From contig JBBRTB010000016.1 in NCBI GenBank assembly GCA_038244815.1, positions 29,056 to 93,055 on the forward strand: 64,000 nucleotides of DNA. The letters are read 5' to 3'. Shown piece after piece: positions 29,198 through 61,708 of this stretch. The position numbers and the translations under genes were made by a program. The stretch's first letter is position 1; each line of letters starts with the position of its first letter. Source of the DNA: Thermoanaerobaculia bacterium. GTDB lineage: Bacteria; Acidobacteriota; Thermoanaerobaculia; Gp7-AA8. The notes beneath the pieces were generated by a model. That model was not told where the DNA came from. It saw only the letters and a program-made list of their open reading frames with translations, and ran no database searches.

Positions 29198-29242
29198 TGT
29201 CTTAGACCCGGCTACCCGGCAACCCGATAACCCGGCAACCCG
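29151..29242. repeat. Imperfect inverted octamer arrays (GGGTTGCC-type vs ACCCGGCA-type) bracketing the rnj start codon
   Basis: Direct reading. TTGCCGGGTT at 29157-29166 lies inside the first rnj codons. AACCCGGCAA occurs twice at 29213-29238 in the 5' leader. The rnj start codon (29195-29197) lies between them. Confidence 0.5.
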
Positions 29243-29258
29243 TTCACGCAGCAACCGG

Positions 29259-38921: not shown

Positions 38922-40250
38922 ATGACCGGCAATCTCTTTGGCGATGCGGACAGCCGCGACGCCCCCGAAACTCCACGAGGGGATGCCCCCCTTCCGGAGC
39001 GTCTCCGCCCGAAATCGCTGGCCGACGTGATCGGGCTGGAGGAGATCCTCGGGCCGGGACGTTTTCTGCGCAATGCCATCGAGAGCGATCGCATCCCCTC
39101 GATGATCTTCTGGGGGCCGCCGGGATCGGGCAAGACCACGCTGGCGCGGATCATCGCCGGCACGACGCGCGCGCGATTCGTTCAATTCTCCGCGACCAGC
39201 ACGTCGATCAAGGACATCAAGACCCTGATGGAAGAGGCGCGCAAATCACGGCAACTGCGCGGATCGAAGACGATCGTCTTCATTGATGAAATCCACCGGT
39301 TCAACAAAGCGCAACAGGATGCGTTTCTGGGGTACGTCGAGTCGGGCGACATCACCCTCATCGGAGCCACCACGGAGAATCCGTCGTTCGAGGTGAACTC
39401 GGCCCTTCTGTCACGCAGCAAAGTGGTGGTCATCCCGGCGCTGGAACGCGAACAGGTCATCACCATCCTTCATCGCGCCATCGACGATCCGAGCGTCAGC
39501 CAATACGGAATCGAGATTCTGCCGGACGCGCTCGACTTCATCGCCGCTACTTCCGCGGGCGATGCGCGACAGGCGCTGAATTCACTGCAGCTCGTCGTGG
39601 AGACGGCCACGAAGGAAGACGGGCCCATCGACGCCCCGAAGATCAGGACGATCCTGCAGCGCCGCTCCCTGATGTATGACAAATCGGGCGACGAGCACTT
39701 CAACATCATCTCGGCGCTCCACAAGTCGGTGCGCAACGGCGATGCCGATGCCGCCGTGTACTGGCTGGTGCGCATGCTCGAGGGGGGCGAAGACCCGCTC
39801 TACATCGCCCGGCGCATGGTGCGTGCGGCATCGGAGGACGTCGGCAACGCCGACCCGCAGGCTCTGGTCTTCGCCATCGCCGTCCAGCAGACCGTTCATT
39901 TCCTGGGCATGCCCGAGGCCGGAGTCGCGCTCGCCCAACTCGTCACGTACCTGGCGGCGGCGCCGAAATCCAACGCGGCGTACGTGGGCTACGGCGAAGC
40001 GGTGACCGAGGTGCGCCAGGGTGACAACCCTCCCGTGCCGCTGCACATCCGCAACGCACCCACGCGTCTCATGAAGGACCTTGGCTACGGCCAGGGATAC
40101 AAATACGCCCACGACTTCGAGGATCAGACCGCGGCGATGGACTGCCTGCCCGATGCATTACGGGATCGCCGGTTTTACGAACCGAAGGATGCCGGATTCG
40201 AGCGCGAGATGCGCGAGAGGCTGGAGCGAATGCGGAAGGCGCGGAAATGA
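38922..40250 (+). CDS. rarA: Replication-associated recombination protein A (AAA+ ATPase)
   Basis: Walker A GPPGSGKTT, sensor motifs and the MgsA C-terminal domain. 442 aa. Confidence 0.85.
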   Translation: MTGNLFGDADSRDAPETPRGDAPLPERLRPKSLADVIGLEEILGPGRFLRNAIESDRIPSMIFWGPPGSGKTTLARIIAGTTRARFVQFSATSTSIKDIKTLMEEARKSRQLRGSKTIVFIDEIHRFNKAQQDAFLGYVESGDITLIGATTENPSFEVNSALLSRSKVVVIPALEREQVITILHRAIDDPSVSQYGIEILPDALDFIAATSAGDARQALNSLQLVVETATKEDGPIDAPKIRTILQRRSLMYDKSGDEHFNIISALHKSVRNGDADAAVYWLVRMLEGGEDPLYIARRMVRAASEDVGNADPQALVFAIAVQQTVHFLGMPEAGVALAQLVTYLAAAPKSNAAYVGYGEAVTEVRQGDNPPVPLHIRNAPTRLMKDLGYGQGYKYAHDFEDQTAAMDCLPDALRDRRFYEPKDAGFEREMRERLERMRKARK

Positions 40251-40450
40251 AAATGCAAAATGCAAAATGCAAAATGCAGAATCAGGGTCGAGCGAATGCG
40301 GAAGGCGCGGGACTGAGAAATCTTGAATGAAGAATCGGCCGTCGCCGTGATCGTGATTTCTTAATTCGAAATTCGAAATTCACTCCGACAACGGCTCAGA
40401 GCAGATACCAAATGCTTTTTTGCATTCTGCATTTTGCATTTTGCATTTCG
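40249..40450. repeat. Composite structured repeat region: (AAAATGC)x4 and an inverted (GCATTTT)x3 flank about 135 nt that include a duplicated rarA 3' end
   Basis: Direct reading. 40250-40282 holds AAAATGC tandem copies. 40418-40448 holds the reverse-complement array. GAGCGAATGCGGAAGGCGCGG occurs at 40222 and again at 40289. CGAAATTC and TTCACTCCGA are duplicated. Confidence 0.5.
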
Positions 40451-40460
40451 AATTCTGCCT

Positions 40461-40865
40461 TCACTCCGAATACGCGTTCGCCTTCCTCTTGATCACCGCC
40501 GGCTTCCGGTCCTCGCCCACATTTACATAAACCACGGTCGCTTCGGTCACGACGACCCGTTTCTCCGGATCGTTGCCGCGGATGGCCTCACAGGTCACCT
40601 TGACGGTGATCGAGGTCGTGCCGATGCGTACGGTCTCGGTCCAGAAGGAGATGAGATCGCCGACGAAGACGGGCTCGTGAAAGACGACCTTGTCCATCGA
40701 CACGGTGACCATGAAGCGGGAACCCTGCCGGCGCGCTTCGATCGCGCCGGCCTGGTCGATGTAGGAGAGGATGACGCCGCCGAAGATGGTGCCGTGGGCG
40801 TTGGTGTCGCGCGGCATCATGAGCACGCGAATGGCGGGCTCATCCCACTTCGAAACGGCTTCCAT
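40461..40865 (-). CDS. Acyl-CoA thioesterase (hotdog fold, YciA/4HBT-like)
   Basis: 134 aa. Core DTNAHGTIFGGVILSYID motif. Confidence 0.75.
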   Translation of the reverse strand: MEAVSKWDEPAIRVLMMPRDTNAHGTIFGGVILSYIDQAGAIEARRQGSRFMVTVSMDKVVFHEPVFVGDLISFWTETVRIGTTSITVKVTCEAIRGNDPEKRVVVTEATVVYVNVGEDRKPAVIKRKANAYSE

Positions 40866-40870
40866 CGGCG

Positions 40871-42823
40871 TCAGGCGCCCTGCTGCTGCGATTTGCTGCG
40901 CGACTGGAGCACCTGCTGATTGATGTCCACTTTCGCTTCTTTGCGCAGTTTCTCCAGAAGGACCGCGCGAAGATTGCGCGACTGCTGACCGCGGATCATG
41001 TCCATGTAGGAAGCCTCATTCGCCTTCACGTCCGCATCGGTCACTTTCTTCTGTTCGGTTACCGAAAAAACGACGGCGCCATCGCCGGTGGCCACGGGGC
41101 CCTCGAGTTTTCCGACCGGAGCGGCAAAGGCCGTATTCACGAGCTGCGCGGTGTCGCCGGTGATGCCGCTGGTGAAGCCCTGGCGGTTCACGGTGGTGTC
41201 GCTGGCCGGAAGTCCGACTTTGGCGGCCACCGCGTCGACCGAAGGCGCGCCCGTCATGGCGTTCTTTAGCGCCTGCAGGGCCAGCTGCCTGGCCTTGCCC
41301 ATCTTGGCGTCCTGCGTCACGCGGTCGCGGATCTCGGCCAGCGCGGTCACACCGGCCGGACGAATGCCGTACAGGAACGGGATGACGATGCCGCGCTGCG
41401 TGCCGGTCATCTCGCCCACGTCATTCTGTTTGGCGCTGAACGCCCATCCCGAGAGGGCCGGATTGGCGCCGATGCCGGGGATCGTATCCGTCTTCTGGAA
41501 CCACAGCGTGTCGTTCGAGCTGATCTTGTCATTGGCGTACGCCGCGAACGCCTCGGCCGTGGCCGGTTTGTTCTGGCGAAGCTTCGCCGCGATCTGCGTC
41601 ATCTGCTCGCGAGCCTGATCCTTGGCCATCTGTTCGGCCACCTGTGCGGCGAGCTCCGCCTTCACTTCTTCGAATGACTTCGTGGCCGCCGGACGCCGCT
41701 CCATTACTTTGAGGATGTGGTACCCGTACTGCGTCTTGATCGGATCGCTGATCTGATTGAGCGGCAGAGTGAACGCCGCGTTCTCGAACTCGGGCACCAT
41801 CTGCCCGCGCGAGAACCAGCCCAGATCGCCGCCCTTCGCCGCCGACTGAGGGTCGGCTGAATTTTGCTTGGCCAGGGCCGCGAAGTCCGCACCGGAGCGG
41901 AGCTGTTTCACCAGCGATTCCACCCTGGCCTTCGCCGCGGCGTCGACCTCGGGAGCGGCGTTCGGATCGACCTTGATCAGGATATGAAGGGCGTGGGCTT
42001 GCTCCGGGGTCTTGAAGTCGTTGACCGACGCTTCGTAGCGCTTCTTCAGTTCGTCTTCGCCGGGGATGATCTGCGACCGAAGGCGGTTGAAGTCGGCCAT
42101 GAGGTACTTCACGTCGCGCTGTTCGGAGTGCGAATACTTCGACTGGTTGGCGCTGTAGAACGCATCGACCTCGGCAGGAGTGATCGTGACGGTGCCCAGC
42201 TCGCGGTTGGCCGGATAGAGCACGTAACGGATCTTCGCGTTCTCGCTGATGCGGCGGTACTCTGCATCGGCCATCTTCGGCGAGATGATGACCGACGCCG
42301 CCATGACGCTCTCCATCTTCTGAATGGTGATGTCCCTGGCCAGCTGGTCCTCGAATTCCGCCGGCGAAGAGAAACCCAGGTTCGCCGTGACGTAACGGGA
42401 ATAGAGATCGGCTCCGATGAACGAGCCGTCCGGATTCTTGAGGATGGGAATCTCCATGATCTTCTTGCGGACCTCTTCCGGCGTGGCGCTGAGATGGAGG
42501 CGCTGCGCCTGCTGCAGCATGAGCCGCTGATCGACGAGCGAATCGATGACCTGCTTCGACAACCCCATCTGGTCGAGCATCTCCTGGGTGAGGTTCGCGC
42601 CGTAGATCTGACGGTAGTTCTGCTCCGCGTAGTACATGGCCCGGTCGAAATCGCGATACGTGATCGTCTCGCCGTTGACGCGCGCGGCGTAGCCCCCGGC
42701 CGCCGAAGCGCCGCTCGTACCGCCGGCACCCCAGTCGACGAAGATGAACAGGATGAAGACCGCCACAACCCCGACGAGGATCCACTTGAGCTGCTGGAAG
42801 CTGTCACGCATCAACTTGAGCAT
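40871..42823 (-). CDS. ppiD: Periplasmic chaperone / peptidyl-prolyl isomerase PpiD (SurA-like)
   Basis: N-terminal TM anchor. SurA-N-like region. Parvulin domain (GGDLGWFSRGQMVPEF). 650 aa. Confidence 0.7.
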   Translation of the reverse strand: MLKLMRDSFQQLKWILVGVVAVFILFIFVDWGAGGTSGASAAGGYAARVNGETITYRDFDRAMYYAEQNYRQIYGANLTQEMLDQMGLSKQVIDSLVDQRLMLQQAQRLHLSATPEEVRKKIMEIPILKNPDGSFIGADLYSRYVTANLGFSSPAEFEDQLARDITIQKMESVMAASVIISPKMADAEYRRISENAKIRYVLYPANRELGTVTITPAEVDAFYSANQSKYSHSEQRDVKYLMADFNRLRSQIIPGEDELKKRYEASVNDFKTPEQAHALHILIKVDPNAAPEVDAAAKARVESLVKQLRSGADFAALAKQNSADPQSAAKGGDLGWFSRGQMVPEFENAAFTLPLNQISDPIKTQYGYHILKVMERRPAATKSFEEVKAELAAQVAEQMAKDQAREQMTQIAAKLRQNKPATAEAFAAYANDKISSNDTLWFQKTDTIPGIGANPALSGWAFSAKQNDVGEMTGTQRGIVIPFLYGIRPAGVTALAEIRDRVTQDAKMGKARQLALQALKNAMTGAPSVDAVAAKVGLPASDTTVNRQGFTSGITGDTAQLVNTAFAAPVGKLEGPVATGDGAVVFSVTEQKKVTDADVKANEASYMDMIRGQQSRNLRAVLLEKLRKEAKVDINQQVLQSRSKSQQQGA

Positions 42824-42944
42824 GGGAACTACCTTTCGGACGAAATGTCGCCGCGCGGGCGACGAGTGAGAACCTCAAGAAAAAACGGCGCATCTTACCT
42901 ATTCCCCGCCGTCGCGTAAACGCCTCTCTGTGCTATAACAATTC

Positions 42945-44393
42945 GTGGCGGGAATGGCCAAAAAGCGTAGCAGGGCAGTGCAAGGTGCCGAAGTCGATTG
43001 GTACCTGATATCGATCGACCGGCTCAAGCAGGTCGGTCTTGTCGTCTTGATTCTCCTCCTTGCCGCTGCCGGTTACTTCTTCTGGCAGAAGGAGAAGGGC
43101 AACCCGCGCTCGAATGCCGAATCCGCGATCGCCGACGCGCGACAGGCCCTGAACTCACTGGCTGCCTCGAAGGACTTCAACATTCACCGCCCCGAGTTCG
43201 ATCGTGCGCAACGCAAACTGGACGAGGCGAATTCGCACTTCGGGGCCACAAAGTACGCCGAGGCTCAGGACGCGGCGGTGGAATCGCAGACCATCAGCCG
43301 CGGTGCGCTCAGCGGCGACCGCGAGAACGACGCCCAGTTTCTCACCGTGGAAGGCGATGTCCGGTTTCAGAAGGGCGGTTCCGGCGACTTCAAACCTGCC
43401 GAGCCGCGCACTCCTCTATTCAATGGCGACTGGGTCAAGACCGGGGATCATGCCTCAGCCGAGCTCATCTTTTCGAACGGGTCGCTCTACACGATCGGCT
43501 CCAACGCGCTGCTGGAGATCTACTCGCAGGTCACCCCCGGTTCGTCGAAGAAGACGAACGAAGTGAAGATGCAGGTCGGCTCGGTCGAAGTGGCCACGAC
43601 CGACGACCAGTCGACCGTGCGCACGCCGGGCACGCGCGTGGTGATCGACTCCGAGTCGACCACCCAGGTGGGCGTCGACAAGGGGCAGCAGACCGCCGTC
43701 GTGGCCACGCGGGGAACCGCGTCGGTGGCATCGAGCACGGGCGGCCAGACCATCAAGCTCAGCAGCGGCGAAAAAGTCAGCGCCACCGCGGCGGGCCAGG
43801 TCTCCGGCGTCAAGACGCTCGCCGAACCTCCGGCGATCCTCTCGCCGGCCGACAACCAGGTGTTCCAGATGACCGGCGACCTGCGCGTGCAGTTCGGCTG
43901 GGACAAGGAGCCGGCGGCCGGCGCCTACGTCCTGCAGGTTTCCCGCTCCCGCCTCTTCTCGACCCTGGAGATCAACTCGCGGCGCCAGACCACCACCGCG
44001 AACGCAAAGGTGACCTCGGAAGGCTCGTTCTACTGGCGCGTCGCCTCCCTGGGAACCGACGGCGAGGTCGGGCCGTTCTCCTCGTTCCGGCGCTTCCGCG
44101 TCTCCGGAGGCAGCCGAGGCGGGTCGAGCGCGGTGACGGCGGACCGGGAGCCGCCGAAGCTGCAGCTCAACAAGCCGTACTCGATCGGCGGTCCGTTCTT
44201 CATGATCGAAGGGACGACCGAGCCGGGCGCCACCGTGTTCATCAACGAGGAAGAAGTGGACGTCGAGTCCAACGGCCACTTCAAGAAGCTGGTGAGCTTC
44301 AGCAAGACCGGCTCGAACGCGGTGGTGGTGAAAGCGATCGACCCCGCGGGCAACCAGACCGTGAAGTCCGAGTCCGTGTTCGTGGAGGAGTGA
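42945..44393 (+). CDS. FecR-domain membrane-anchored protein
   Basis: Single TM helix. FecR-like beta segment (GDWVKTGDHASAELIFSNGSLYTIGSNALLEI). 482 aa. Confidence 0.5.
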   Translation: MAGMAKKRSRAVQGAEVDWYLISIDRLKQVGLVVLILLLAAAGYFFWQKEKGNPRSNAESAIADARQALNSLAASKDFNIHRPEFDRAQRKLDEANSHFGATKYAEAQDAAVESQTISRGALSGDRENDAQFLTVEGDVRFQKGGSGDFKPAEPRTPLFNGDWVKTGDHASAELIFSNGSLYTIGSNALLEIYSQVTPGSSKKTNEVKMQVGSVEVATTDDQSTVRTPGTRVVIDSESTTQVGVDKGQQTAVVATRGTASVASSTGGQTIKLSSGEKVSATAAGQVSGVKTLAEPPAILSPADNQVFQMTGDLRVQFGWDKEPAAGAYVLQVSRSRLFSTLEINSRRQTTTANAKVTSEGSFYWRVASLGTDGEVGPFSSFRRFRVSGGSRGGSSAVTADREPPKLQLNKPYSIGGPFFMIEGTTEPGATVFINEEEVDVESNGHFKKLVSFSKTGSNAVVVKAIDPAGNQTVKSESVFVEE

Positions 44394-44397
44394 CGGA

Positions 44398-44600
44398 CGT
44401 TCTCGGTGCTGGGTGCTCGGTGCTCGGTGCTGGGTGCTAGGTGCCTCGGTGCTGGGTGCTTCGGTTCGCCCACCGCAAAACCGAGAACCGAGAACCGAGG
44501 GACCGCGGATCAAGGACCGACGACCGAGGACCGATGACCGAGCATCCAGCACCGAGCACCGAGCACCCAGCACCCAGCACCCAGCACCCAGCACCGACTG
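44398..44600. repeat. Inverted heptamer-array element: (GGTGCTS)n ... (CCGAGAA / GACCGAN)n ... (SAGCACC)n
   Basis: Direct reading. 44401-44460 holds about 8 tandem GGTGCT[GC] units. 44546-44596 holds the reverse-complement array CAGCACC/GAGCACC. Between them lies a second repeat (CCGAGAA x3). It sits in the intergenic spacer before mreB. Confidence 0.55.
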
Positions 44601-44664
44601 TATAGTTCGCGGGGCAAACGTTTTGCACCACGTCTTCGCGACTACGCTACCGAGATCCACCTGA

Positions 44665-45708
<1,044 letters not shown>

Positions 45709-45751
45709 GCGCGACACTGGCGTAATTTCTGCTCAGGGCGGTTGATCAGTT

Positions 45752-46612
45752 ATGGCAGTTCCCTCAGACGTCATCCCGCGTCGGCCAACGCTGTTGTTCA
45801 TCGTCGTCCTCTCACTCCTGTTCATTCTGATGAGCCTGAGCAGCCGGACGCGGTACATCGGCGAGACGCGTACGCTCTTCGAGCGCACCGTGATGACGGT
45901 GTTCTCTCCCGTGCCGCGGGCGGTGAACTGGGTGGGCGGGACGGCATCCGACATGTTCCACGGCTACCTGGATATGCGCCGGGCCGTGAATGAGAATCTC
46001 GACCTGCACCGCAGAGTGGCCGCGCTGACCATGGAGAACCTCAAGCTTCGCCAGTCTGCGACGGACATGCGCCGTATGCGCAGCCTCCTTGGCTATTCCG
46101 AGCAGTTCACGCTGCAGACCTCGGTGGCGCAGGCGATCATGCTCGACACGTCGGGCCGCTTCAAATCGATCATCATCGATCGCGGATCGTCCGACGACAT
46201 CGAGATCAACGACGCCGTGGCCAATGCCAGCGGGCTCATCGGACGCGTCGTATTGACGACGAAGGACATGGCCAAGGTACAGCTTCTGACAGACGGGAAC
46301 TCCGCGGTCGGCGCGCTCATCGAACGGACTCGGCGGCAGGGAGTGATCCGCGGTGACGGATCGGGTGGTCTGCAGATGAACGACGTGCCGGCGCTGTCGG
46401 ACGTCGTGGCCGGGGACCGCGTCTTCACGGCCGGCATCGACGGCATCTATCCAAAGGGGATTCCCATCGGCGTGGTCGTCAAAGCCGAGCAGGGGCCGAA
46501 CCTCTTCAAGAACATCCTGGTCAGGCCGGCCATCGAAACCGGGTCCATCGAAGAGGTCATCATCATTCACACGCGCAAGATTCCGGCGGGAGTGGTGAGG
46601 TACACCCCGTGA
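45752..46612 (+). CDS. mreC: Rod shape-determining protein MreC
   Basis: N-terminal TM helix, coiled coil and C-terminal beta domain. Follows mreB. Confidence 0.8.
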   Translation: MAVPSDVIPRRPTLLFIVVLSLLFILMSLSSRTRYIGETRTLFERTVMTVFSPVPRAVNWVGGTASDMFHGYLDMRRAVNENLDLHRRVAALTMENLKLRQSATDMRRMRSLLGYSEQFTLQTSVAQAIMLDTSGRFKSIIIDRGSSDDIEINDAVANASGLIGRVVLTTKDMAKVQLLTDGNSAVGALIERTRRQGVIRGDGSGGLQMNDVPALSDVVAGDRVFTAGIDGIYPKGIPIGVVVKAEQGPNLFKNILVRPAIETGSIEEVIIIHTRKIPAGVVRYTP

Positions 46613-47103
46613 GGTGGTTGCGCTTCGCCGTGGGCCTGCTGATCGCGCTGACGCTGCATTCGCTGCTGGACAGCTTCTTTCCGAACGCGCTGGCGTTTTT
46701 CAATCCTTACGTCATCCTCATCGTGTACTACGCGATGGGCGGCAACGTCCTGGGAGCGATCATCGCCGGCGTGATCGCCGGTCTGGTGCAGGATGCCTTT
46801 TCATCGTCGATGTTCGGACTGCACGCGTTTTCGCTGACTGTCTGCGCGTACATCGTGGCGTACATCAACTCGCGCCTGTCGCTGCGCGGGACGTTCGCGT
46901 TCGGCGCCTGTCTGGCCGGGGCGGTGATCGTCAATGAGCTGGTGATCTATATCCTCGTAAACATCCTCCTGCGGCAGCGCATCGAGATGTTCGAGCAGGG
47001 TCTGCTCGTCAAGACGATCTTCACGCTCATCTTCGGAATGTTTGTGTATCAGCTTCTGGCGCTGTTCCTGCGCGAGGAGCCGGTGGAAGCAACCAGGTTC
47101 TAA
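46609..47103 (+). CDS. mreD: Rod shape-determining protein MreD
   Basis: Small polytopic membrane protein in the mreBCD position. Start overlaps the mreC stop. Confidence 0.7.
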   Translation: MRWLRFAVGLLIALTLHSLLDSFFPNALAFFNPYVILIVYYAMGGNVLGAIIAGVIAGLVQDAFSSSMFGLHAFSLTVCAYIVAYINSRLSLRGTFAFGACLAGAVIVNELVIYILVNILLRQRIEMFEQGLLVKTIFTLIFGMFVYQLLALFLREEPVEATRF

Positions 47104-47107
47104 GCCC

Positions 47108-49084
47108 ATGCGAGTCTATCGAGACGATCAGAAGTTCCTGCAGTTCCGCATCAACGCCGTGTTGTGGGGCATCGCCGCAGTCTTCGTGTTCCTGGCCGGA
47201 TCGTTCTGGTTCGTGCAGGGCGTGCAGGCCGACAAGTATCGCGGGTTGTCCGAGGCCAACGCGCTGCGAGAGAACGTGATCCCGGCGAAGCGCGGCCTGA
47301 TCATGGACCGCAACGGCAAGATTCTCGCGGACAACCAGCCGACGTATTCGCTGACGGTCGATCGCGTGGTGCTGAAATCGCTCATCAAAGGCGACGCCAA
47401 TCATCGCCCCAAGCTCATCACCTTTCTCTCCGGCGTCCAGGGAGTGCCGCCCCAGGAGATCGAAGCCCGCTTTGAGAAGGGAAAAGACATTCCCATGGCC
47501 CGGCCGCTGCCGGTCGGCGAAGATCTGGCCATGGATCAGGTGGCCTCGATCCAGGCCCAGGCAGTGTCGTTTCCAGAGCTGAACGTCAATCCCGTGCAAC
47601 GCCGCAACTACGGCTACGGCACGATGGCCGCGCATGTGATGGGATTCCTCGGCGAGGTCAACGACAAGGACCTCGCCCAGCATCCCGACCTCAAGCAGGG
47701 CGACCTCATCGGCAAGCGCGGCGTCGAGCTGATGTACGACAACTATCTCCGCGGCAGAGACGGCGCCGAGTACTGGGAGTACGACAGCCATGGCCGCCGC
47801 CTCTCAGAGTACGTGCCTGCCCGCAAGGAAGCGGTGGCCGGCGACAACGTCTATCTGACGCTCGACTTCGAGATGCAGCGCCGCGCCGAACAGTACTTCA
47901 TCGAAAACGAATTCGTCGGCGCCGCGGTCGCGCTCGATCCCCGCAACGGCGAAGTACTGACCATGGTCTCGTCGCCGACGTTCAATCCAAACGTCTACTC
48001 GAAGCGCTTCACACCGCAGGTGTGGAAGACCATCATCTCCAATCCGTTCAAGATCGAGCTGAACCGCTGCATCCAGGGCCTCTACTCGCCGGGATCGGTC
48101 TTCAAGGCTGTCATGGCCATGGCCGGACTCTCCGACGACGCCATCACACCGACGACGACGTTCGACTGCGCCGGTACGGCGGTGTTTTTCGGACGCCGCT
48201 TCCGCTGCTGGCGGCGCGCCGGGCACGGCTCCGTCTCCGTCGCCAACGCCCTCAAAGTCTCCTGCGACATCTTCTTCTACAACGTGGGAGCGCGGCTCGG
48301 TGTCGACAAGATCGCCGAGTACGCCCACAACCTGACGTTCGGCGAGATCTCCAAGATCGATCTCGACGGCGAAAAGGCCGGCCTCCTTCCATCGACCACC
48401 TGGGCGGAGCAGAAGCAGCACCGCAAGTGGTATCCGTCGGAGACCATTTCTGTGGCCATCGGTCAGGGACCGCTGATCGTGACGCCGCTGCAGGTCGCGA
48501 ACATGATGGCCGCCATCGCCAACGGCGGAAAGGTCTACCAGCCCCACGTCGTGCGCAAGATCGAGCACATCAATCCGGACGGCACGAAGAGCTTGAAGGC
48601 CGTGCAACCGCAGGTGCTGCACGAGGTGAGACTCTCACCGGCCGCGCTGCAGACGGTCCGCCTCGGCCTCTGGAAGGTGGTCAACGAAGAAGGAGGAACG
48701 GGCGGCAACGCGCGCATCACCGGCCTCGACATCTGCGGCAAGACCGGCACGGTGCAGGTCATCGCCCAGCACGGCTGGATCAGCACGGCGAACATGCCGT
48801 TCAGCGCGCGCGATCACGCCTGGTTCGCCTCGTTCGGCCCGCGCGACAACCCGGAGCTCGTCGTCGTCGTTTTCGTCGAGCACGCCGGAACGCACGGCGG
48901 CATCGACTCCGCACCGCTGGCGAAACTCATGTACGAGGCCCATTTCCGCCGGGACATTCAGAACACGCGTCTCGACCTCAGCAACCCCGATACGCTCGAA
49001 GCGATCAAGGAAGGGAAAACGCCCGTCCCGGGCCAGGCACCGAAGGCACCTGCGGTTCCTGTCGACAGCAACCTGGGACACTGA
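47108..49084 (+). CDS. mrdA: Penicillin-binding protein 2 (elongasome transpeptidase)
   Basis: SxxK (SPGSVFK), SxN and KTG (KTGT) motifs. 658 aa. Confidence 0.85.
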   Translation: MRVYRDDQKFLQFRINAVLWGIAAVFVFLAGSFWFVQGVQADKYRGLSEANALRENVIPAKRGLIMDRNGKILADNQPTYSLTVDRVVLKSLIKGDANHRPKLITFLSGVQGVPPQEIEARFEKGKDIPMARPLPVGEDLAMDQVASIQAQAVSFPELNVNPVQRRNYGYGTMAAHVMGFLGEVNDKDLAQHPDLKQGDLIGKRGVELMYDNYLRGRDGAEYWEYDSHGRRLSEYVPARKEAVAGDNVYLTLDFEMQRRAEQYFIENEFVGAAVALDPRNGEVLTMVSSPTFNPNVYSKRFTPQVWKTIISNPFKIELNRCIQGLYSPGSVFKAVMAMAGLSDDAITPTTTFDCAGTAVFFGRRFRCWRRAGHGSVSVANALKVSCDIFFYNVGARLGVDKIAEYAHNLTFGEISKIDLDGEKAGLLPSTTWAEQKQHRKWYPSETISVAIGQGPLIVTPLQVANMMAAIANGGKVYQPHVVRKIEHINPDGTKSLKAVQPQVLHEVRLSPAALQTVRLGLWKVVNEEGGTGGNARITGLDICGKTGTVQVIAQHGWISTANMPFSARDHAWFASFGPRDNPELVVVVFVEHAGTHGGIDSAPLAKLMYEAHFRRDIQNTRLDLSNPDTLEAIKEGKTPVPGQAPKAPAVPVDSNLGH

Positions 49085-49093
49085 CGTCAGACG

Positions 49094-50197
49094 ATGCCCA
49101 CCGACCGCACTCGAAACCTGCCTACGCTGGACTGGAACTTCATCGGCACCGCCCTGGTGATCGCCGCGATCGGCTGCCTGCTCGTCTATAGCGCCACCTA
49201 TTTCAATGATCCCGGCCTGAACACCTTCAAAAAGCAGCTTCTCTGGATCGGAATCGGGATCGCCCTCATGGCGCTCTTCATCAGCGTCGACTACCACGTC
49301 CTGTTCGATATCGCCCCGATTCTGTACGGCATCGGTGTGGTGCTGCTCGTCTATCTCCTGGTCTGGGGGAAGGTCACCGCCAACGTGAAGTCGTGGATCC
49401 ACATCGGCGGTTTTCAGTTTCAGCCCGCCGAGTTCATGAAGGTGTTCACGGCCCTGATGCTGGCGAAGTTTTTCGACTCGAACGATCGCGCCTATCTGAA
49501 TTTCCGGTCGTTCTGCTATGCCATGGGCATCATCGGCCTGCCGGTCGGACTGATCATCGTGCAACCCGACTTCGGGACGGCGGCGACGTTCTTTCCGCTC
49601 GTGGCCGTGGCCATGTTCTTCGGCGGCATCCGCCCACGCATCTGGGCGGCCATGATCCTCATCGGCCTCATCGCCCTCCCCGCCGGCTGGGTCTTCTTCC
49701 TGAAGCCATATCAGAAAGAACGGATCATGATCTTCCTGAATCCGGAACGCGATCCGCTCGGGTCCGGCTACCAGGTCACGCAGGCCAAGATTGCCATCGG
49801 CTCGGGCGGCATCCACGGCAAAGGATTCAAACAGGGCACCCAGGCGGCGCTCGGCTATCTTCCGGCACGGCACACCGACTTCATCTTCGCCGTCCTCGGC
49901 GAGGAGTGGGGGTTCATCGGCGTGGTCATCGTTCTCAGCCTCTACCTCTACCTGATCACGCAGGCGCTGACGTTCGCCAAACATGCCCGCGACCGCGGCG
50001 GCACGTTCTTATGCATCTGCCTCATCTCCTTCATCATCTTTCACGTTTTCATCAACGTGGCCATGCAGATCGGTGTGCTGCCGACCACCGGCATTCCGCT
50101 GCCGCTCATCTCCTACGGCGGATCGTCGACGATGATGTTCATGATCGCCATCGGGCTGATCGCGAACGTGGATATGCGGCGGTTCGTCAACGCCTGA
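49094..50197 (+). CDS. rodA: Peptidoglycan glycosyltransferase RodA (SEDS family)
   Basis: FtsW/RodA/SpoVE signature motifs. 10 TM helices. Confidence 0.85.
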   Translation: MPTDRTRNLPTLDWNFIGTALVIAAIGCLLVYSATYFNDPGLNTFKKQLLWIGIGIALMALFISVDYHVLFDIAPILYGIGVVLLVYLLVWGKVTANVKSWIHIGGFQFQPAEFMKVFTALMLAKFFDSNDRAYLNFRSFCYAMGIIGLPVGLIIVQPDFGTAATFFPLVAVAMFFGGIRPRIWAAMILIGLIALPAGWVFFLKPYQKERIMIFLNPERDPLGSGYQVTQAKIAIGSGGIHGKGFKQGTQAALGYLPARHTDFIFAVLGEEWGFIGVVIVLSLYLYLITQALTFAKHARDRGGTFLCICLISFIIFHVFINVAMQIGVLPTTGIPLPLISYGGSSTMMFMIAIGLIANVDMRRFVNA

Positions 50198-50202
50198 GTG
50201 AC

Positions 50203-50568
50203 CTACGACCGGCGGCCCACGACCTTATCGAGATCCCGGCGCTCTTTCTTGGTCGGCCTGCCCGCTCCGCGGTCCCGAAACGAGCTCGCCGCGGCAGGCT
50301 GGCTCACCGGCGCCGGGCTCTCGTCGATGTAGGCCGTCTTCCCGGCCTCCTTCGAGAGCTGTCCCTCGGGCAGGACGACGGCGATCACCCGCCGGAAACG
50401 GTCGTTCAGCAGGAACTCGACGACATCATCTTCCCGGACCGGCGCGGACGGCTTGACCCGCTGGCCGTTGATCTTCACGTGCCCGCCGCGGCAGGCTTCA
50501 GCCGCCTCTTCCCGGTGCTTGAAGAGACAGACGAGCTTGAGCCAGTGATCGATCCGATGACGTTCCAT
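50203..50568 (-). CDS. S4-domain RNA-binding protein (Hsp15/HslR-like)
   Basis: Start taken at MERHRIDHWLK (S4 motif). The longer ORF extension is encoded by the heptamer repeat and is rejected. Confidence 0.6.
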   Translation of the reverse strand: MERHRIDHWLKLVCLFKHREEAAEACRGGHVKINGQRVKPSAPVREDDVVEFLLNDRFRRVIAVVLPEGQLSKEAGKTAYIDESPAPVSQPAAASSFRDRGAGRPTKKERRDLDKVVGRRS

Positions 50569-50570
50569 TT

Positions 50571-50653
50571 GCGAGGCCTCGGGCCTCAGGCCTCGGGCCA
50601 CAGGCCTCAGACCCTCCCCTTTTTCCGAGGCCCGAGGCCCGAAGCCCGAGGCC
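50571..50653. repeat. Inverted heptamer-array hairpin: (GGCCTCR)x5 - CCCTCCCCTTTTTCC - (GAGGCCC)x4
   Basis: Direct reading. The arms are exact reverse complements. The 17-nt loop carries a T-tract. It lies in the divergent spacer between the S4 gene and hupB. Confidence 0.55.
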
Positions 50654-50667
50654 TGTATAATCAGCCC

Positions 50668-50937
50668 ATGATCAAGGCCGATATCGTCAACAAAGTCGCG
50701 GAGTCATCGGATATTTCGCGGGTGAAGGCGGCTCAGGCAGTGGACACGGTCATCGAAGGACTGCGGAACGCGCTCGCCCGCGGACAGCGCATCGAACTGC
50801 GCGGGTTCGGTGTCTTTCAGGTGAAACAGCGCAAGAAGGGCATCGGACGCAACCCCAAGACCGGCGTCGAGGTGAAGATTCCGCCGGGCAACACCATCCG
50901 CTTCAAGCCGGGCAAAGAGCTCCGCAATCTTCTGTAA
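50668..50937 (+). CDS. hupB: HU/IHF-family nucleoid-associated DNA-binding protein
   Basis: RGFGVFQVKQR...GRNPKTG arm motif. 89 aa. TATAAT lies 6 nt before the ATG with no Shine-Dalgarno sequence. Confidence 0.8.
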   Translation: MIKADIVNKVAESSDISRVKAAQAVDTVIEGLRNALARGQRIELRGFGVFQVKQRKKGIGRNPKTGVEVKIPPGNTIRFKPGKELRNLL

Positions 50938-50965
50938 CAACAACGACAAACTGTCACGGATGAAA

Positions 50966-50996
50966 GGACGCCGCAACGGCGTCCTGTCTTTTTCGT
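50966..50996 (+). terminator. Rho-independent terminator after hupB
   Basis: GGACGCCG-CAA-CGGCGTCC hairpin followed by TGTCTTTTT. Confidence 0.5.
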
Positions 50997-51097
50997 GAAC
51001 TTCGCCTCCAGCCGGCTATCCGCAGAAACCCGCGGACGTCTGAATCGAATGAAGCTCCGAACAACGACGCCGAAAGGTCAAACAAGGAGAAGACTCG

Positions 51098-51520
51098 ATG
51101 AAGACTCTCATACCCGCACTCGCCCTGGTCCTCGCTGTCGGATGCGCTTCCACCGCCACGAACTCGAACAACGAGGCTGGCGGAACGCCGACGATCGCCG
51201 GCATCACCAGCAATCCCAGAAATGCACCTGAGTTCGTGCTGCTGTCGGCGCCCACCCAGGTCCGTACATACGACTTCAGTGACTCGCTGGGCGTGCGCGG
51301 CTTCCACGTGCGCGGCACGCTCACGAACAAGGGCTTCTATCCAGCCGGTGAGGTTCAGGGCTCCGGCAAATTCTGCGCGGACGGCAAGGATTGGTTCAGC
51401 CTCTCCGAGTTGAAAGTGCACACCGCATCGGATGGGAAGGCACCAATAGCGCCGTACATCCTGGGATGCGCCACCAGTTCCGGCTTCCAGCCTGCATCGC
51501 GAACCATCGTGATGCAGTAA
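51098..51520 (+). CDS. Lipoprotein (hypothetical)
   Basis: Signal peptide with a lipobox (LAVGC). 140 aa. Confidence 0.45.
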
Positions 51521-51630
51521 CGGCAGTCCCACCTCTTTCTTCCTTCCTTCTTCAGGCAGGCCGCCGGTTTGGGCTGAAACCGGCGGCCATTTCGTCTCGC
51601 GGCCATGCACCCTCCGCTACAATCCCGCCC

Positions 51631-53172
51631 GTGCAGCCCGCCCAGTGCGTCCTCGTTCTCGATTTCGGCTCTCAATACACGCAACTGATCGCACGGCGCA
51701 TCCGCGAACAGAACGTTTATTCGATCGTTCATCCGTTCGACTTCCCGGTCGATGCCATCCGCAGACTCGCTCCTCGCGCGATCATCTTTTCCGGCGGTCC
51801 TCAGTCCGTATATTCCGAGACGGCGCCCTGGTGCTCGCGGGAGATCTTCGACCTGGGCGTGCCGATTCTCGGCATCTGCTACGGGATGCAGCTCACCGCC
51901 TATCTCCTCGACGGAAAAGTGGAAGCGGCGTCGGAGCGCGAATACGGGCGCGCGGAAATCGAGGTCGTGTCCGACTCCGCGCTCTTCGCGGGAACGCCGA
52001 AGCGGCAGCAGGTCTGGGAGAGTCACGGCGACCGCATCGTCGAGCCGCCGGCGGGCTTCGTGGTCACGGCCACTTCCTGCAACGCTCCGATCAGCGCGTT
52101 CGAGAATCGTGAGCGCCGCTGCTACGGCATCGAGTTTCACCCCGAGGTCACGCACAGCGAGGCCGGGACGCAGGTGCTGCGAAACTTTCTGTTCGACATC
52201 GCCGGCTGCCAGCCGAACTGGGACCTCGGCGACTTCCGCCGGCGCAAAGTCGAAGAGATCCGCGAGACCGCCGGCAAGAGCCATGTCATCGCTGCTGTGA
52301 GCGGTGGCGTCGATTCATCCGTGGCGGCGCTGCTGGTGGCCGAGGCGATCGGCGATCGACTCACCGCCATCTTCGTCGACAACGGCGTGCTCCGGAAGAA
52401 CGAAGCGATGCAGGTGGTCTCGAGGCTGAGCGAGGGTCTGGGCATGCACATCGTCGCGATCGACGGCAGGCAGCGCTTCTACGAGAAGCTCGCCGGCGTC
52501 GAAGATCCCGAAGTGAAGCGCAAGCGGATCGGCAACGAGTTCATCGCCATCTTCGAAGAAGAAGCACGGAAGATTCCCAACGTCGAGTTCCTCATGCAGG
52601 GAACTCTGTATCCGGACGTCATCGAGTCCGTCTCCATCAAAGGTCCGTCCGCGGTCATCAAGACGCATCACAACGTCGGCGGACTCCCCGAGAAAATGGG
52701 GCTGAAGCTGATCGAGCCGGTCCGCGAGCTCTTCAAGGACGAAGTGCGTCGCCTCGGCGTCGAGCTGGGACTGGAAGAAGAGTTTGTGTGGCGACATCCC
52801 TTCCCCGGACCGGGCCTGGCCGTGCGCATCCTCGGCGAAGTGAACGCCGAACGCGTCGAAATCCTGCAGAACGCCGACGAGATCGTCATCGAGGAGATCC
52901 GCCGCGCCGGCTTGTATCGCGCCATCTCGCAGGCCTTCGCCGTGCTGCTGCCGGTGAAGAGCGTCGGCGTCATGGGTGACGAGCGGACGTACGAGAATGT
53001 GCTGGCGGTGCGGGCGGTGTCGACGACCGACTTCATGACCGCGGACTGGTACCGCATGCCGCACGATGTGCTCGACCGCATGTCCCGCCGGATCGTCAAC
53101 GAGGTGCGCGGTGTGAACCGGGTGGTCTACGATATCTCCTCGAAGCCGCCATCGACGATCGAATGGGAGTAG
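51631..53172 (+). CDS. guaA: GMP synthase (glutamine-hydrolysing)
   Basis: GATase-1 domain (GICYGMQ), ATP-PPase SGGVDSS motif and the C-terminal dimerisation domain. GTG start 7 nt after TACAAT. Confidence 0.9.
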
Positions 53173-58165: not shown

Positions 58166-59263
58166 TTAATTTCTCTGAATACTTTCTATGGAATCGACAA
58201 TCTTTTTTGTAGCTTCCGGTGTGGCCAGTCTCCCCGCTGCCAGACCCATCTGCCGCGTCCGCTCGGGGTTGCCGATGATCTCGTTGATGGCCGCGCCGAG
58301 TTTCTCCGGCGTCAGCTCCGCTTCCGTGATCACGATGCCTCCTCCCGCCCTCTCCACCGCGCGGGCGTTCAGCTCCTGGTGATTGTTCGTGGCCGCGGCG
58401 AACGGCACGAAGATGGCCGGCCGGCCGATCGCGGCCAGCTCGCCGATGGTCATCGCTCCGGCCCGGCTCACCACGAGGTCCGCGGCCGCGATCTCGTCGA
58501 CGATGGGATCGAGGTACGGCACCACCCGCGCCTCCGGAAATGCTCCCGAGGTGCGATACGCGGCCTGAACCTTCTGCAGCTCTCCCGGCCCGGTCTGATG
58601 AACGATGTGCAGACGGTCTTTCAGGCGCGAGAGGAATAGCAGGGCGCCGGTCATGGCGTCGTTGAGCGTGCGTGAGCCCTGCGAGCCGCCGAAGATCAGC
58701 AGGCGAGGCCTCGGGCCTCGGGCCTCGGGCCTCGGCTGCAGGAACTCCGCGCGAACCGGATTCCCGGTGACCACCGCATCCGGACGCTTCATCCGGGTGG
58801 CCGCCTCCGCGAAGGCGACGTCGACTCCCTTCACGAATCTTGCGAGCAGGCGGTTCGTGAGACCGGGAAACGCGTTCTGCTCGTGGATGATCGTCGGTAC
58901 GCCGCGCAGCATCGCCGCGAGCAGCACCGGGCCGGATGAATAGCCACCGACGCCGAGAACGACGTCCGGCTGGTACCTGCCGACGAGGCGAAAGGCCTGC
59001 GCGAAGCCGAGAGGCAGGCGGACGATGTTGCGGATGAGATCGAGTCCGGCCTTTCCCTTGAGCCCGCCGACCGAGATGAACTCGACCGGGAAGCCCGCCT
59101 TCGGAACGATGGTCTTCTCGAGGCCGCGCTCGGTGCCGACGAAGACGGCCCGGCGGTTCTTGTCGCGCGCGACGTACTCGCGAGCGATGGCGATGGCCGG
59201 GTAGATGTGTCCCCCCGTCCCTCCGCCGCCGACCATCAGTGTCTTCACGCCCGCCTCGCCCAT
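58166..59263 (-). CDS. murG: UDP-GlcNAc--undecaprenyl-PP-MurNAc-pentapeptide GlcNAc transferase
   Basis: GGTGGHIYPAIAIA N-terminal motif and the FGGSQGS motif. The linker contains the in-frame (GGCCTCG)4 array. Confidence 0.85.
   Translation of the reverse strand: MGEAGVKTLMVGGGGTGGHIYPAIAIAREYVARDKNRRAVFVGTERGLEKTIVPKAGFPVEFISVGGLKGKAGLDLIRNIVRLPLGFAQAFRLVGRYQPDVVLGVGGYSSGPVLLAAMLRGVPTIIHEQNAFPGLTNRLLARFVKGVDVAFAEAATRMKRPDAVVTGNPVRAEFLQPRPEARGPRPRLLIFGGSQGSRTLNDAMTGALLFLSRLKDRLHIVHQTGPGELQKVQAAYRTSGAFPEARVVPYLDPIVDEIAAADLVVSRAGAMTIGELAAIGRPAIFVPFAAATNNHQELNARAVERAGGGIVITEAELTPEKLGAAINEIIGNPERTRQMGLAAGRLATPEATKKIVDSIESIQRN
58705..58735. repeat. In-frame (GGCCTCG)x4 heptamer array inside murG (encodes PRPEARGPRP in the inter-domain linker)
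   Basis: Direct reading. The unit is the same as in the 50571-50653 element. Confidence 0.5.
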
Positions 59264-60368: not shown

Positions 60369-61708
60369 GATTTCGGGTTGCCGGATTGCCGGGTTGCCGG
60401 GTTGCCGGACAGTTCTCTGACCAGTTGTTCGAAGTGTTCGCCGCGATACTCGAAGTTTCTGTATTGATCGAAGCTCGCGCATGCCGGCGACAACAGCACG
60501 GTGTCACCCGGTTTGGCGTGCTTCGAAGCCCAGTCGATGGCGTGCTCCATGTCGCCCGCGGGAACGATCGTCGCCGCACCCTCCAGCGCCTCCTCGATCC
60601 GATGCGCGGCCTTGCCGATGGTGATGACGCCGCGCGTTTTCTCCTTGACGAGCTCGCGCATGCGCTCGAATTCCCCCGCTTTGTCCTTGCCGCCGAGGAT
60701 CAGCCAGACGCTCGATGGCGGAAAGCTCTCCAGCGACTTGAGCGTGGCGTCTACGTTCGTCCCTTTGGAGTCGTTGATCCAGCGCACGCCGTCGCGCTCG
60801 CGCACGAGAACCATGCGGTGGGGCAAGCCGGCGAACGACGCGAACGCGGTCTGCACGGAAAGGTCATCGATGCCGGCGGCCCGCGCCGCCAGCCAGGCGG
60901 CCAGCGCGTTCTCAGCGTTCGCGGTGCCCTCCAGCCTCAGCGACGAGCGGGGAATGCGCCGCTGGTTGCCATCGACGCGAATGACCATCTCGTTGCCGTC
61001 GAGGTACGCGCCTTCGTTCACCTTCTGCGACGACGAGAACTGCCATAGTCGCGCGCGCGAATCGGGATGCCCCAACGATGCGTTCACGATCGCGAAGTCC
61101 ACCGGCTGTTGGTTGCGGAAGATGCGGTACTTCGCCGCCGAGTAGGCGTCGAACGTCGGATAGCGATCCATGTGATCGGGCGTGACGTTGAGCAGCAGCG
61201 CGATGTGAGCGTGGAACTTATCGACCGTTTCGAGCTGAAACGAGGACAGCTCGAGCACGTAGGCCCTTTGCTTTTCGAGATCGATCGCGGCGGTGAGCGG
61301 CTCGCCGATGTTGCCGGCCACGATGGGCTGCCTGCCGGCCACGCGCAGGATCTCGCCGATGAGCGCGGTCGTGGTCGACTTGCCGTTCGATCCGGTGACG
61401 GCGATGACCGAGCCTTGCAGATGACGCCAGGCCAGCTCGATCTCGGAGATGATCGGAATCGATCTCGACGCGGCGACCTGCAGCAACGGGATGGTCGTGG
61501 GCACGCCGGGACTGAGCACGATCGTGCTGACGGCATCGAGCAGGATCTCGTCCTGCCGTCCGAACGATCGTTGCACGCGCTCGTCGAGCGGCTGCGGCAA
61601 CGCCGGCGAATCGCTGCTGTCGATGAGACAGACATCCTCGCCGCGGCCGGCCAGAAGATTCGCCGCCGCCACACCCGACTTCCCAGCACCCACCACCAGA
61701 ATTCCCAT
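60365..61708 (-). CDS. murD: UDP-N-acetylmuramoylalanine--D-glutamate ligase
   Basis: GAGKSG N-terminal motif and GSNGKSTT Mur-ligase motif. The C-terminal tail GNPATRQSGNPKS is encoded by the TTGCCGGR array. Confidence 0.85.
   Translation of the reverse strand: MGILVVGAGKSGVAAANLLAGRGEDVCLIDSSDSPALPQPLDERVQRSFGRQDEILLDAVSTIVLSPGVPTTIPLLQVAASRSIPIISEIELAWRHLQGSVIAVTGSNGKSTTTALIGEILRVAGRQPIVAGNIGEPLTAAIDLEKQRAYVLELSSFQLETVDKFHAHIALLLNVTPDHMDRYPTFDAYSAAKYRIFRNQQPVDFAIVNASLGHPDSRARLWQFSSSQKVNEGAYLDGNEMVIRVDGNQRRIPRSSLRLEGTANAENALAAWLAARAAGIDDLSVQTAFASFAGLPHRMVLVRERDGVRWINDSKGTNVDATLKSLESFPPSSVWLILGGKDKAGEFERMRELVKEKTRGVITIGKAAHRIEEALEGAATIVPAGDMEHAIDWASKHAKPGDTVLLSPACASFDQYRNFEYRGEHFEQLVRELSGNPATRQSGNPKS
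60376..60410. repeat. (TTGCCGGR)x4 octamer array spanning the murD 3' end and the ftsW start region
   Basis: Direct reading. The reverse-complement unit (ACCCGGCA) recurs at 29206-29242. Confidence 0.5.

Follow-up and report, generated by a model that had tools for sequence, protein, structure and literature searches.

The spacer between two divergent genes in a 64,000-nt stretch of a Thermoanaerobaculia genome (Acidobacteriota; GenBank assembly GCA_038244815.1, contig JBBRTB010000016.1, positions 29,056 to 93,055), in the following called the window, is occupied by two facing tracts of a 7-nt repeat, which can fold together into a strong hairpin. On its left side lies a minus-strand gene for an S4-domain protein of the Hsp15 type, on its right side a plus-strand gene for a DNA-binding protein of the HU/IHF family. 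This element is one ordinary copy of an intergenic class of palindromic heptanucleotide repeats which is found throughout the lineage, and nothing marks it as a genetic switch, as had been proposed in a first-pass annotation of the window. The explanation preferred here, to which a probability of roughly 0.55 is assigned, is that of a palindromic heptamer microsatellite which has grown in place and by now probably folds into a hairpin in the 5' leader of the S4 mRNA. If the element has any activity, it would most likely act as RNA, by affecting how stable the S4 message is or how it is translated, rather than as a DNA switch.

The element was recovered where the first-pass annotation had placed it, with Tandem Repeats Finder (TRF) as well as with a search for inverted repeats. 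From 50571 to 50655 the sequence consists of GC, a left arm opening with GAGGCCTC, the loop ACCCTCCCCTTTTT and a right arm closing with CTG (Table 1). Period-7 arrays were reported by TRF at 50574-50610 (5.3 copies, 80% matches) and at 50625-50653 (4.1 copies, 90% matches). Each arm contains at least three head-to-tail copies of 7 nt, and the tracts of 50573-50654 face each other as an inverted pair, i.e., near each of them is a tract of the complementary unit on the other strand. Both are interrupted, with two identical units in succession at most. The arms had been described as perfect reverse complements, but the complementarity is only 92% over 26 nt and 83% over 30 nt, with 12-29 nt between the arms (inverted-repeat search, I1 and I2); as DNA they contain at least two mismatches and leave 12-14 nt unpaired in the centre. 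A strong hairpin in the divergent spacer was nevertheless confirmed by folding: values of -68.3 kcal/mol (z -6.83) were obtained for the minus-strand RNA, -58.9 kcal/mol (z -6.77) for the plus-strand RNA and -30.1 kcal/mol (z -5.63) for DNA, and none of 200 shuffled sequences folded as well. Both imperfections of the stem appear as G.U pairs in the S4-sense RNA, where the opposite strand has A.C mismatches. The element is non-coding, being placed between two start codons, and the GGCCTCR unit has no potential for G-quadruplexes. An intrinsic terminator can be dismissed, since the T-tract is situated in the loop and the element lies between two gene starts; a terminator scan of the region reported only the terminator of the HU/IHF gene. 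Matches of the hairpin in an Rfam scan of 40000-52000 were restricted to sub-threshold hits to animal microRNA precursors and snaR, which were considered spurious.

Arrays of this type are abundant in the lineage. In 390 kb, comprising the window and 34 Thermoanaerobaculia loci, 48 period-7 arrays were counted, compared to 0.2 expected from Markov-2 simulations, which is a density of about one array per 8 kb; other periods were rare (8 arrays of period 8, 7 of period 9, at most 2 of any other). About 41 of the 48 lie outside open reading frames (ORFs), about two thirds possess an inverted partner within 160 nt, and the sequence of the unit differs from locus to locus. All intergenic topologies are occupied, including convergent spacers and the interior of operons, and in addition coding linkers. 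The mreB-mreC junction holds a different unit in each of five species (GAGGGAT, CGAGTAG, GAGGAAA, TAGGGAG or ACTCAGG), and these arrays often begin at the conserved mreB stop codon (GAGTAG) or overlap with it; L018 has strongly unequal arms, with about 2 and 10 units. The convergent spacer between the genes for RodA and the S4 protein contains arrays with differing units in four loci (L001, L004, L009, L023), and in two others (L016, L018) a single array begins immediately after the RodA stop codon. Several arrays flank a unique core hairpin, e.g., in L009 and L029. Since orthologous sites are filled with different units, some of them apparently seeded at stop codons, growth in place appears more plausible than transposition. 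Slipped-strand duplication of a 7-nt seed present at the site would then make the arrays grow, and intrastrand template switching probably keeps the arms roughly complementary.

The phenomenon is not specific to Acidobacteriota, since frequent locus-specific arrays, some of them inverted pairs, occur also in unrelated phyla. Among control loci from other phyla (932 kb), period 7 was again the commonest with 45 arrays, while 8 had period 6, 11 had period 8 and 10 had period 9; hot spots such as Pedobacter were noted, and inverted pairs were present as well. One Pedobacter metagenome-assembled genome (MAG), L087, contained 15 heptamer arrays in 17.6 kb; further arrays were noticed in L075, L079 and L085.

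Retrieval on the basis of RodA placed the window among soil MAGs of Thermoanaerobaculia (best RodA identity 87%). For comparisons of the spacer, three sets were used: eight contigs encoding an identical HU/IHF protein, fifteen GTDB species representatives, and contigs encoding the closest S4 homologs. No array upstream of TATAAT was present in 26 of the relatives with a readable S4-to-HU spacer, most of these spacers measuring 21-62 nt. Every readable spacer contained a TATAAT-like box, mostly TATAAT itself, with TATCAT, TATGAT or TATACT in L010, L019, L029 and L011. The closest genome representative has a spacer of 21 nt. In L009 the 21-nt spacer reads CCAT GCTTGTGGT TATAAT CGCTCC ATG, with the palindromic core TTATAA at 6-8 nt from each start codon, a layout which suggests a common -10 box driving two leaderless genes. 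In most relatives the S4 start is 9-13 nt away from the -10 box, and the S4 gene is probably leaderless there; on the HU side, other relatives have retained a leader of 15-23 nt with GGAGG. A spacer of 143 nt was found in the P0010 contig, whose sequence is outside the readable set.

An orthologous array was obtained from one further locus, L089 (CAAGKR010026612.1), which came from a single metagenome scan with the -10-to-ATG junction and is 85% identical to the window over 2.8 kb (49853-52698). Its array occupies the orthologous position and has the same unit as that of the window, one left-arm unit fewer, and a related loop, ACCCGCCCATCCTCTTT. The outermost right unit has diverged, and a matching variant unit on the left pairs with it. 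The folds amount to -66.3 kcal/mol on the S4-sense strand against -57.9 kcal/mol on the other strand, and the stem imperfections are likewise G.U pairs on the S4-sense strand. In the array region the two sequences are 76% identical, compared to 65-74% at third codon positions and 89% in the intergenic region 3' of the HU/IHF gene. The primary sequence of the array thus appears to be roughly unconstrained, while the potential for a hairpin (-66 to -68 kcal/mol) has been retained. In L094, whose S4 protein is 87% identical, a (GTCCTCG)n array adjoins the S4 ATG and the contig breaks within it. An assembly artefact is excluded, since arrays are present in independent assemblies. On these comparisons, the array (about 80 nt) originated in a subclade which includes the window, L089 and probably L094, within a spacer that otherwise measures 21-46 nt. 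The HU leader of relatives without an array, CAGGCCTTCGGAGG, is similar to the array unit, which is suggestive of a possible derivation from it. The spacers of two other close relatives contained different insertions: a direct heptamer run (CAACCGA/GAACCGA) in the 5' untranslated region (UTR) of the HU gene, without GGAGG, in L095 (268-335), and a 91-nt element with perfect, non-tandem inverted arms of 28 bp between TATAAT and the Shine-Dalgarno sequence of the HU gene in L097 (306-424).

Table 1. Features of the S4-HU/IHF spacer and of other repeat arrays (positions in the window, except for the mreB-mreC arrays, which are given by locus)
Feature	Coordinates	Strand	Remarks
Left arm	50573..50610		about 5.3 heptamer units, GGCCTCR-type; GAGGCCTC GGGCCTC AGGCCTC GGGCCAC AGGCCTC AG (direct reading)
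Loop/spacer	50611..50624		14 nt, ACCCTCCCCTTTTT; S4-sense strand AAAAAGGGGAGGGT
Right arm	50625..50654		about 4 heptamer units, GAGGCCY-type; CCGAGGC CCGAGGC CCGAAGC CCGAGGC CT; at the place expected for a -35 element of the HU/IHF promoter
S4-domain (Hsp15-like) gene	50203..50568	-	121 aa; PF01479, E 1.1e-9; weak match to Hsp15 (NF007673)
TATAAT -10 box of HU/IHF gene	50656-50661	+	opposite strand ATTATA/TATACA, probable S4 -10
HU/IHF-family DNA-binding protein gene	50668..50937	+	89 aa; PF00216 (Bac_DNA_binding), 100 bits
Canonical intrinsic terminator of HU/IHF gene	50965..50994 (scan hit 50965-50985)	+	9-bp stem, 7 GC pairs, then GTCTTTTTCG (terminator scan)
Inverted octamer array	29151-29256		flanking genes co-directional, both on the minus strand; GCCGGGTT-type opposite ACCCGGCA-type
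Nested double inverted array	40245-40462		(AAATGCA)5 ... (TGCATTT)n, inner AATTCGA array
Inverted heptamer array, 196 nt	44402-44597		between stop of FecR-like gene and mreB; CTCGGTG/CTGGGTG facing CACCGAG/CACCCAG
(GGCCTCG)x4	58707-58735		inside murG; encodes PRPEARGPRP, variable interdomain linker just before conserved GGSQG motif
Octamer array (CGGGTTGC)x4.4	60374-60408		MurD C-terminal tail, about 16 aa (SGNPATRQSGNPKS*) beyond MurD model match
mreB-mreC arrays	L010 6561-6643; L016 559-616; L018 6467-6539; L021 1309-1409; L025 419-492		

The divergent arrangement of an S4 gene and a gene for a DNA-binding protein was borne out by the domain matches (Table 1). Homologs of the former carry the name "ribosome-associated heat shock protein Hsp15" at the Joint Genome Institute. 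The latter had been called hupB; membership in the HU/IHF family stands, but the protein is not clearly HU, and "HU/IHF family" is the safer label, since the models for IHF-beta (85.7 bits) and IHF-alpha (80.6 bits) score above that for HU-beta (65.9 bits), with none of the three reaching its curated cut-off. The array does abut the -10 box of this gene, yet not at the distance of 3 nt which had been given, since its last unit ends 1-2 nt before TATAAT. This box is the only TATAAT on the plus strand of the entire window. The HU/IHF ATG starts 6 nt after it and no Shine-Dalgarno sequence is present. The earlier proposal of a leaderless message is reasonable, as the arrangement TATAAT-N6-ATG without Shine-Dalgarno sequence recurs in L009, L019, L029 and L023; it is also found in L089, and -10-like hexamers in this clade peak 6-7 nt ahead of the starts of long ORFs. 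The HU/IHF message is probably leaderless. In a sigma-70 scan of 50100-51100 no promoter with both hexamers was detected and no -35 hexamer was definable for either gene; the right arm, with 29 periodic nt, spans the entire -35 zone. The intrinsic terminator of the HU/IHF gene is kept in L089, too, and ordinary terminators are thus in use in this genome. The wider neighbourhood consists of the mreBCD-PBP2-rodA cluster, with a mur/ftsW cluster farther on. At 51616-51633, guaA (GMP synthase, 513 aa) is preceded by TACAAT-N7-GTG and also appears leaderless; this arrangement is conserved in six genomes, including L009, L011, L015, L021 and L028.

The position of the array suggests what its arrival could have meant for the two genes. 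It is lodged exactly between the S4 start codon and a TATAAT box which apparently was common to both. The HU/IHF gene has retained its -10 box and the TATAAT-N6-ATG layout of a leaderless start, with repeat sequence instead of S4 coding sequence as its upstream DNA. The S4 gene has its ATG at 50568, in a CCAT context which did not vary when aligned with relatives. This ATG is 4 nt away from the nearest repeat unit, and 87 nt now separate it from the only recognisable -10 box. If S4 transcription starts from this box read in reverse (ATTATA/TATACA), the mRNA would open with the whole array and would thus possess a 5'-terminal hairpin of 26-32 bp (-68 kcal/mol), ending 4 nt before the AUG. The GAGG of the last unit, 8 nt upstream of the S4 AUG (9 nt in L089), could then act as a makeshift ribosome-binding site. 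An action at the RNA level is supported by the stem imperfections, which are G.U pairs on the S4-sense strand in the window and in L089, and by the frequency of leaderless layouts in the clade. An N-terminal extension of the S4 protein (GTG at 50601, with GGAGG in the loop 11 nt upstream, adding MARGLRPEASQ in frame) was considered as well and rejected, as the frame is not kept in L089.

Several points weigh against a leader hairpin. Transcription of S4 may begin within the array or downstream of it, and the message would then have no such leader. The strand asymmetry of the G.U pairs is weak evidence, as it comprises two to three events. When G.U pairs and A.C mismatches were compared over 24 array pairs, the S4-sense strand was favoured at this locus in both orthologs, but arrays in co-directional operons show no consistent bias for the sense strand; in the plus-strand mre operon, most arrays favour either the antisense strand or none. 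In the window the GAGG is hidden by pairing at the base of the stem, whereas an extra unit in L089 leaves a free copy, so that no conserved translational logic is discernible. Slippage and template switching as the origin of the arms are deduced from the patterns of the arrays. Finally, the conservation of the array sequence is about neutral, and the element may lack any function.

The last point leads to the main rival of the leader hairpin, which is a palindromic microsatellite without function in a permissive spacer, both genes being expressed essentially as before, with S4 transcription starting near the ATG or elsewhere. This possibility is considered less likely. It would agree with the identity between window and L089, which in the array is similar to that of synonymous sites and below that of the adjacent intergenic region, and with the appearance and disappearance of arrays between close relatives at many sites. 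The variants in the arms of the large array upstream of mreB (44402-44597) are not mirror-ordered, which indicates that arms drift independently, and comparable arrays are tolerated even in coding sequence, in the MurG linker (58707-58735) and the C-terminal tail of MurD (60374-60408). What speaks against it is the removal of the S4 start from the only recognisable -10 box, which could hardly leave S4 expression entirely unaffected, the preservation of a hairpin potential of -66 to -68 kcal/mol in two species which are about 15% divergent, and the placement of G.U imperfections on the same strand in both.

A phase-variable promoter, as suggested in the first-pass annotation, in which slippage would alter the promoter geometry and switch the HU/IHF gene, the S4 gene or both, is regarded as highly improbable. 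Tandem units do lie directly against the -10 box, the window and L089 differ by about one left-arm unit, and the T-tract of the loop, at about -44 to -48, might conceivably be an UP-like element that is rephased in steps of 7 nt. Yet no -35 hexamer is available for re-spacing and no tract lies between two fixed promoter elements; since the right arm is periodic, a gain or loss of 7 nt would leave the 29 nt next to the -10 box unchanged. Interrupted repeats are expected to slip at low rates, and here the tracts have at most two identical consecutive units and matches of 80-90%; only about one unit has changed over some 15% of sequence divergence. No sequence from the same species was obtained for comparison: exact matches to the RodA and S4 proteins gave no hit, and the metagenome hit L089 is only 85% identical. 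The neighbours, of the HU/IHF family and the Hsp15-like S4 type, are housekeeping genes; no gene for a surface structure, host interaction or restriction-modification flanks the element, and arrays of the same kind are also met with in convergent spacers, in the interior of operons and in linker-coding sequence.

Similarly little credence can be given to a DNA cruciform serving as operator, which would be extruded by negative supercoiling between the divergent promoters and bound by the HU/IHF product for autoregulation. HU-family proteins do bind four-way junctions, and arms of 26-30 bp in a divergent promoter region, with a DNA fold of -30.1 kcal/mol (z -5.6), would fit the idea. No specific support was obtained, since mismatches in the DNA arms and the unpaired centre of 12-14 nt disfavour extrusion, 26 relatives with a readable spacer use the same -10 box without an array upstream, many loci which have nothing to do with HU possess the same type of array, the protein resembles HU no more closely than IHF, and on one strand the mismatches become G.U pairs, which RNA tolerates.

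Least probable of all is a hairpin inserted by a transposase, similar to a MITE (miniature inverted-repeat transposable element), a repetitive extragenic palindromic (REP) sequence or a REPIN: a palindromic element with lineage-specific presence, recurrence of the GGCCTCG unit at 58707-58735 and the non-tandem 28-bp inverted repeat in the S4-to-HU spacer of L097 might point to it, but a second copy of loop plus arms, or many dispersed copies of one palindromic family, were not found in the 64-kb window and the related loci, where only the short unit recurs, no target-site duplication is apparent in the flanks (TTGC / TG TATAAT, direct reading), units are locus-specific over the 48 arrays, and orthologous sites carry different units by species, some seeded from local stop-codon sequence.

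The element belongs to a known, although poorly understood, kind of repeat, whose notable local twist is that each locus has a unit of its own. Heptanucleotide repeats are the over-represented class of long simple sequence repeats (SSRs) in many prokaryotes, mainly intergenic and scattered over lineages (Mrazek, Guo and Shah 2007, summarised in PMC4679880 and PMC4692102). What they do, and why the period is 7 nt, was treated as unresolved in these two papers of 2015. The arrays described here agree with them in the dominance of period 7, both in Thermoanaerobaculia and in the control phyla, and in a mainly intergenic location; Acidobacteriota or Thermoanaerobaculia are not described in the surveys consulted, nor are inverted pairs with a locus-specific unit emphasised. 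A literature search on tandem repeats of Thermoanaerobaculia retrieved none. In Xanthomonas, 70-75 inverted pairs of GGGAATC per genome are capable of forming stem-loops or cruciforms (Rehm et al. 2015, PMC4692102). They resemble our element in having two convergent intergenic tracts, and the type of repeat is kept between species while its length varies (PMC4692102), but a single G-rich unit is used genome-wide there and discussed as forming G-quadruplexes, whereas here the unit is particular to the locus.

The short tandemly repeated repetitive (STRR) sequences and other heptamers of cyanobacteria (Calothrix, Nostoc) are found beside promoters or start codons, including those of housekeeping and DNA-repair genes, and their deletion in reporters modulated the access of regulators with modest effects, the role being unresolved (PMC4692102; bioRxiv 10.1101/2022.06.06.494920). 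Tandem units next to a promoter and start codon are a common trait; the cyanobacterial repeats, however, are mostly direct arrays of few families at many loci, in contrast to the locus-specific palindromic pairs found here. For the way in which the element probably works, the closest analogy is provided by REP sequences, bacterial interspersed mosaic elements (BIME) and REPINs of Enterobacteria and Pseudomonas, which are intergenic, GC-rich hairpins that are transcribed at the ends of genes or inside operons and affect mRNA stability or termination (PMC3116915). REPs, however, are conserved families dispersed by a RAYT transposase, whereas the present arrays have no sequence in common as a family and bear marks of having grown in place. 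Contingency repeats such as the TA tracts of Haemophilus hif and the AGAT repeats of Moraxella uspA2 are also situated right beside a core promoter (PMC4679880; review PMC11868660). They are long and uninterrupted, are placed in the -35/-10 interval or within the 5' UTR of genes for surface structures, and differ from one sibling cell to the next. The present tract is degenerate and flanked by housekeeping genes; it is found upstream of a promoter which possesses a -10 box only, and has changed by about one unit between species.

The interpretation as a switch should therefore be dropped, and the element taken by itself is an ordinary member of the heptanucleotide-repeat class. Of wider relevance is the finding that a class of uncultured soil Acidobacteriota is densely populated with locus-specific palindromic heptamer arrays. 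Their turnover between species at the same intergenic sites and the apparent local seeding bear on the question why bacteria favour repeats of 7 nt. Presence or absence of the array in a 21-nt bidirectional leaderless promoter also offers a clean natural experiment on the effect of such insertions on expression. One could speculate further, although this is unlikely to be true, that Thermoanaerobaculia and other heptamer-rich lineages such as Pedobacter possess an active process which seeds 7-nt units at gene boundaries, often from stop-codon sequence, and extends them symmetrically into hairpins. If so, cells would have at their disposal a rapidly evolving stock of locus-specific RNA hairpins with which the 5' and 3' ends of mRNAs are re-wired, and a leaderless Hsp15-like gene would here have been converted to one with a structured leader; period 7 would then mirror the footprint left by one particular enzyme, be it a polymerase, a primase or a repair factor, and not generic slippage.

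Other arrays of the window (Table 1) show some individual traits. The one upstream of mreB contains about 9 CTCGGTG/CTGGGTG units against about 17 ACCGAGC-type units and is an insertion relative to L012. Just 3' of it, at 44611-44627, a sigma-54-like -24/-12 motif, GGGGCAAACGTTTTGCA, was noticed upstream of mreB; the motif is conserved in 12 relatives with a conserved mreB upstream region, with L022 and L013 as exceptions, and suggests that transcription of mreB could depend on sigma-54. It was also considered whether the arrays themselves carry an outward promoter, since a motif TGTATAAT / TGTATAGT follows those at 50654 and 44599. This was rejected, as the HU box is ancestral and exists without arrays, and mreB has the conserved sigma-54-like motif instead. 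A run of (GAGGTCC)x4 at 15783-15812, without an inverted partner, is contained in a long open frame of the minus strand.

As RNA, the array at 29151-29256 folds with -50.1 kcal/mol on the minus strand and -44.5 kcal/mol on the plus strand. Its octamer unit is the same as that in the murD tail, whose end overlaps the start codon of ftsW as ATGA, and the array in murG carries a heptamer unit which is also found in the S4/HU spacer element. The nested arrays at 40245-40462 fill their convergent spacer entirely, from stop codon to stop codon; the left one is flanked by a direct duplication of 21 nt, GAGCGAATGCGGAAGGCGCGG (at 40224 and 40290), of the 3' end of the upstream gene, and this duplication has created a new stop codon.

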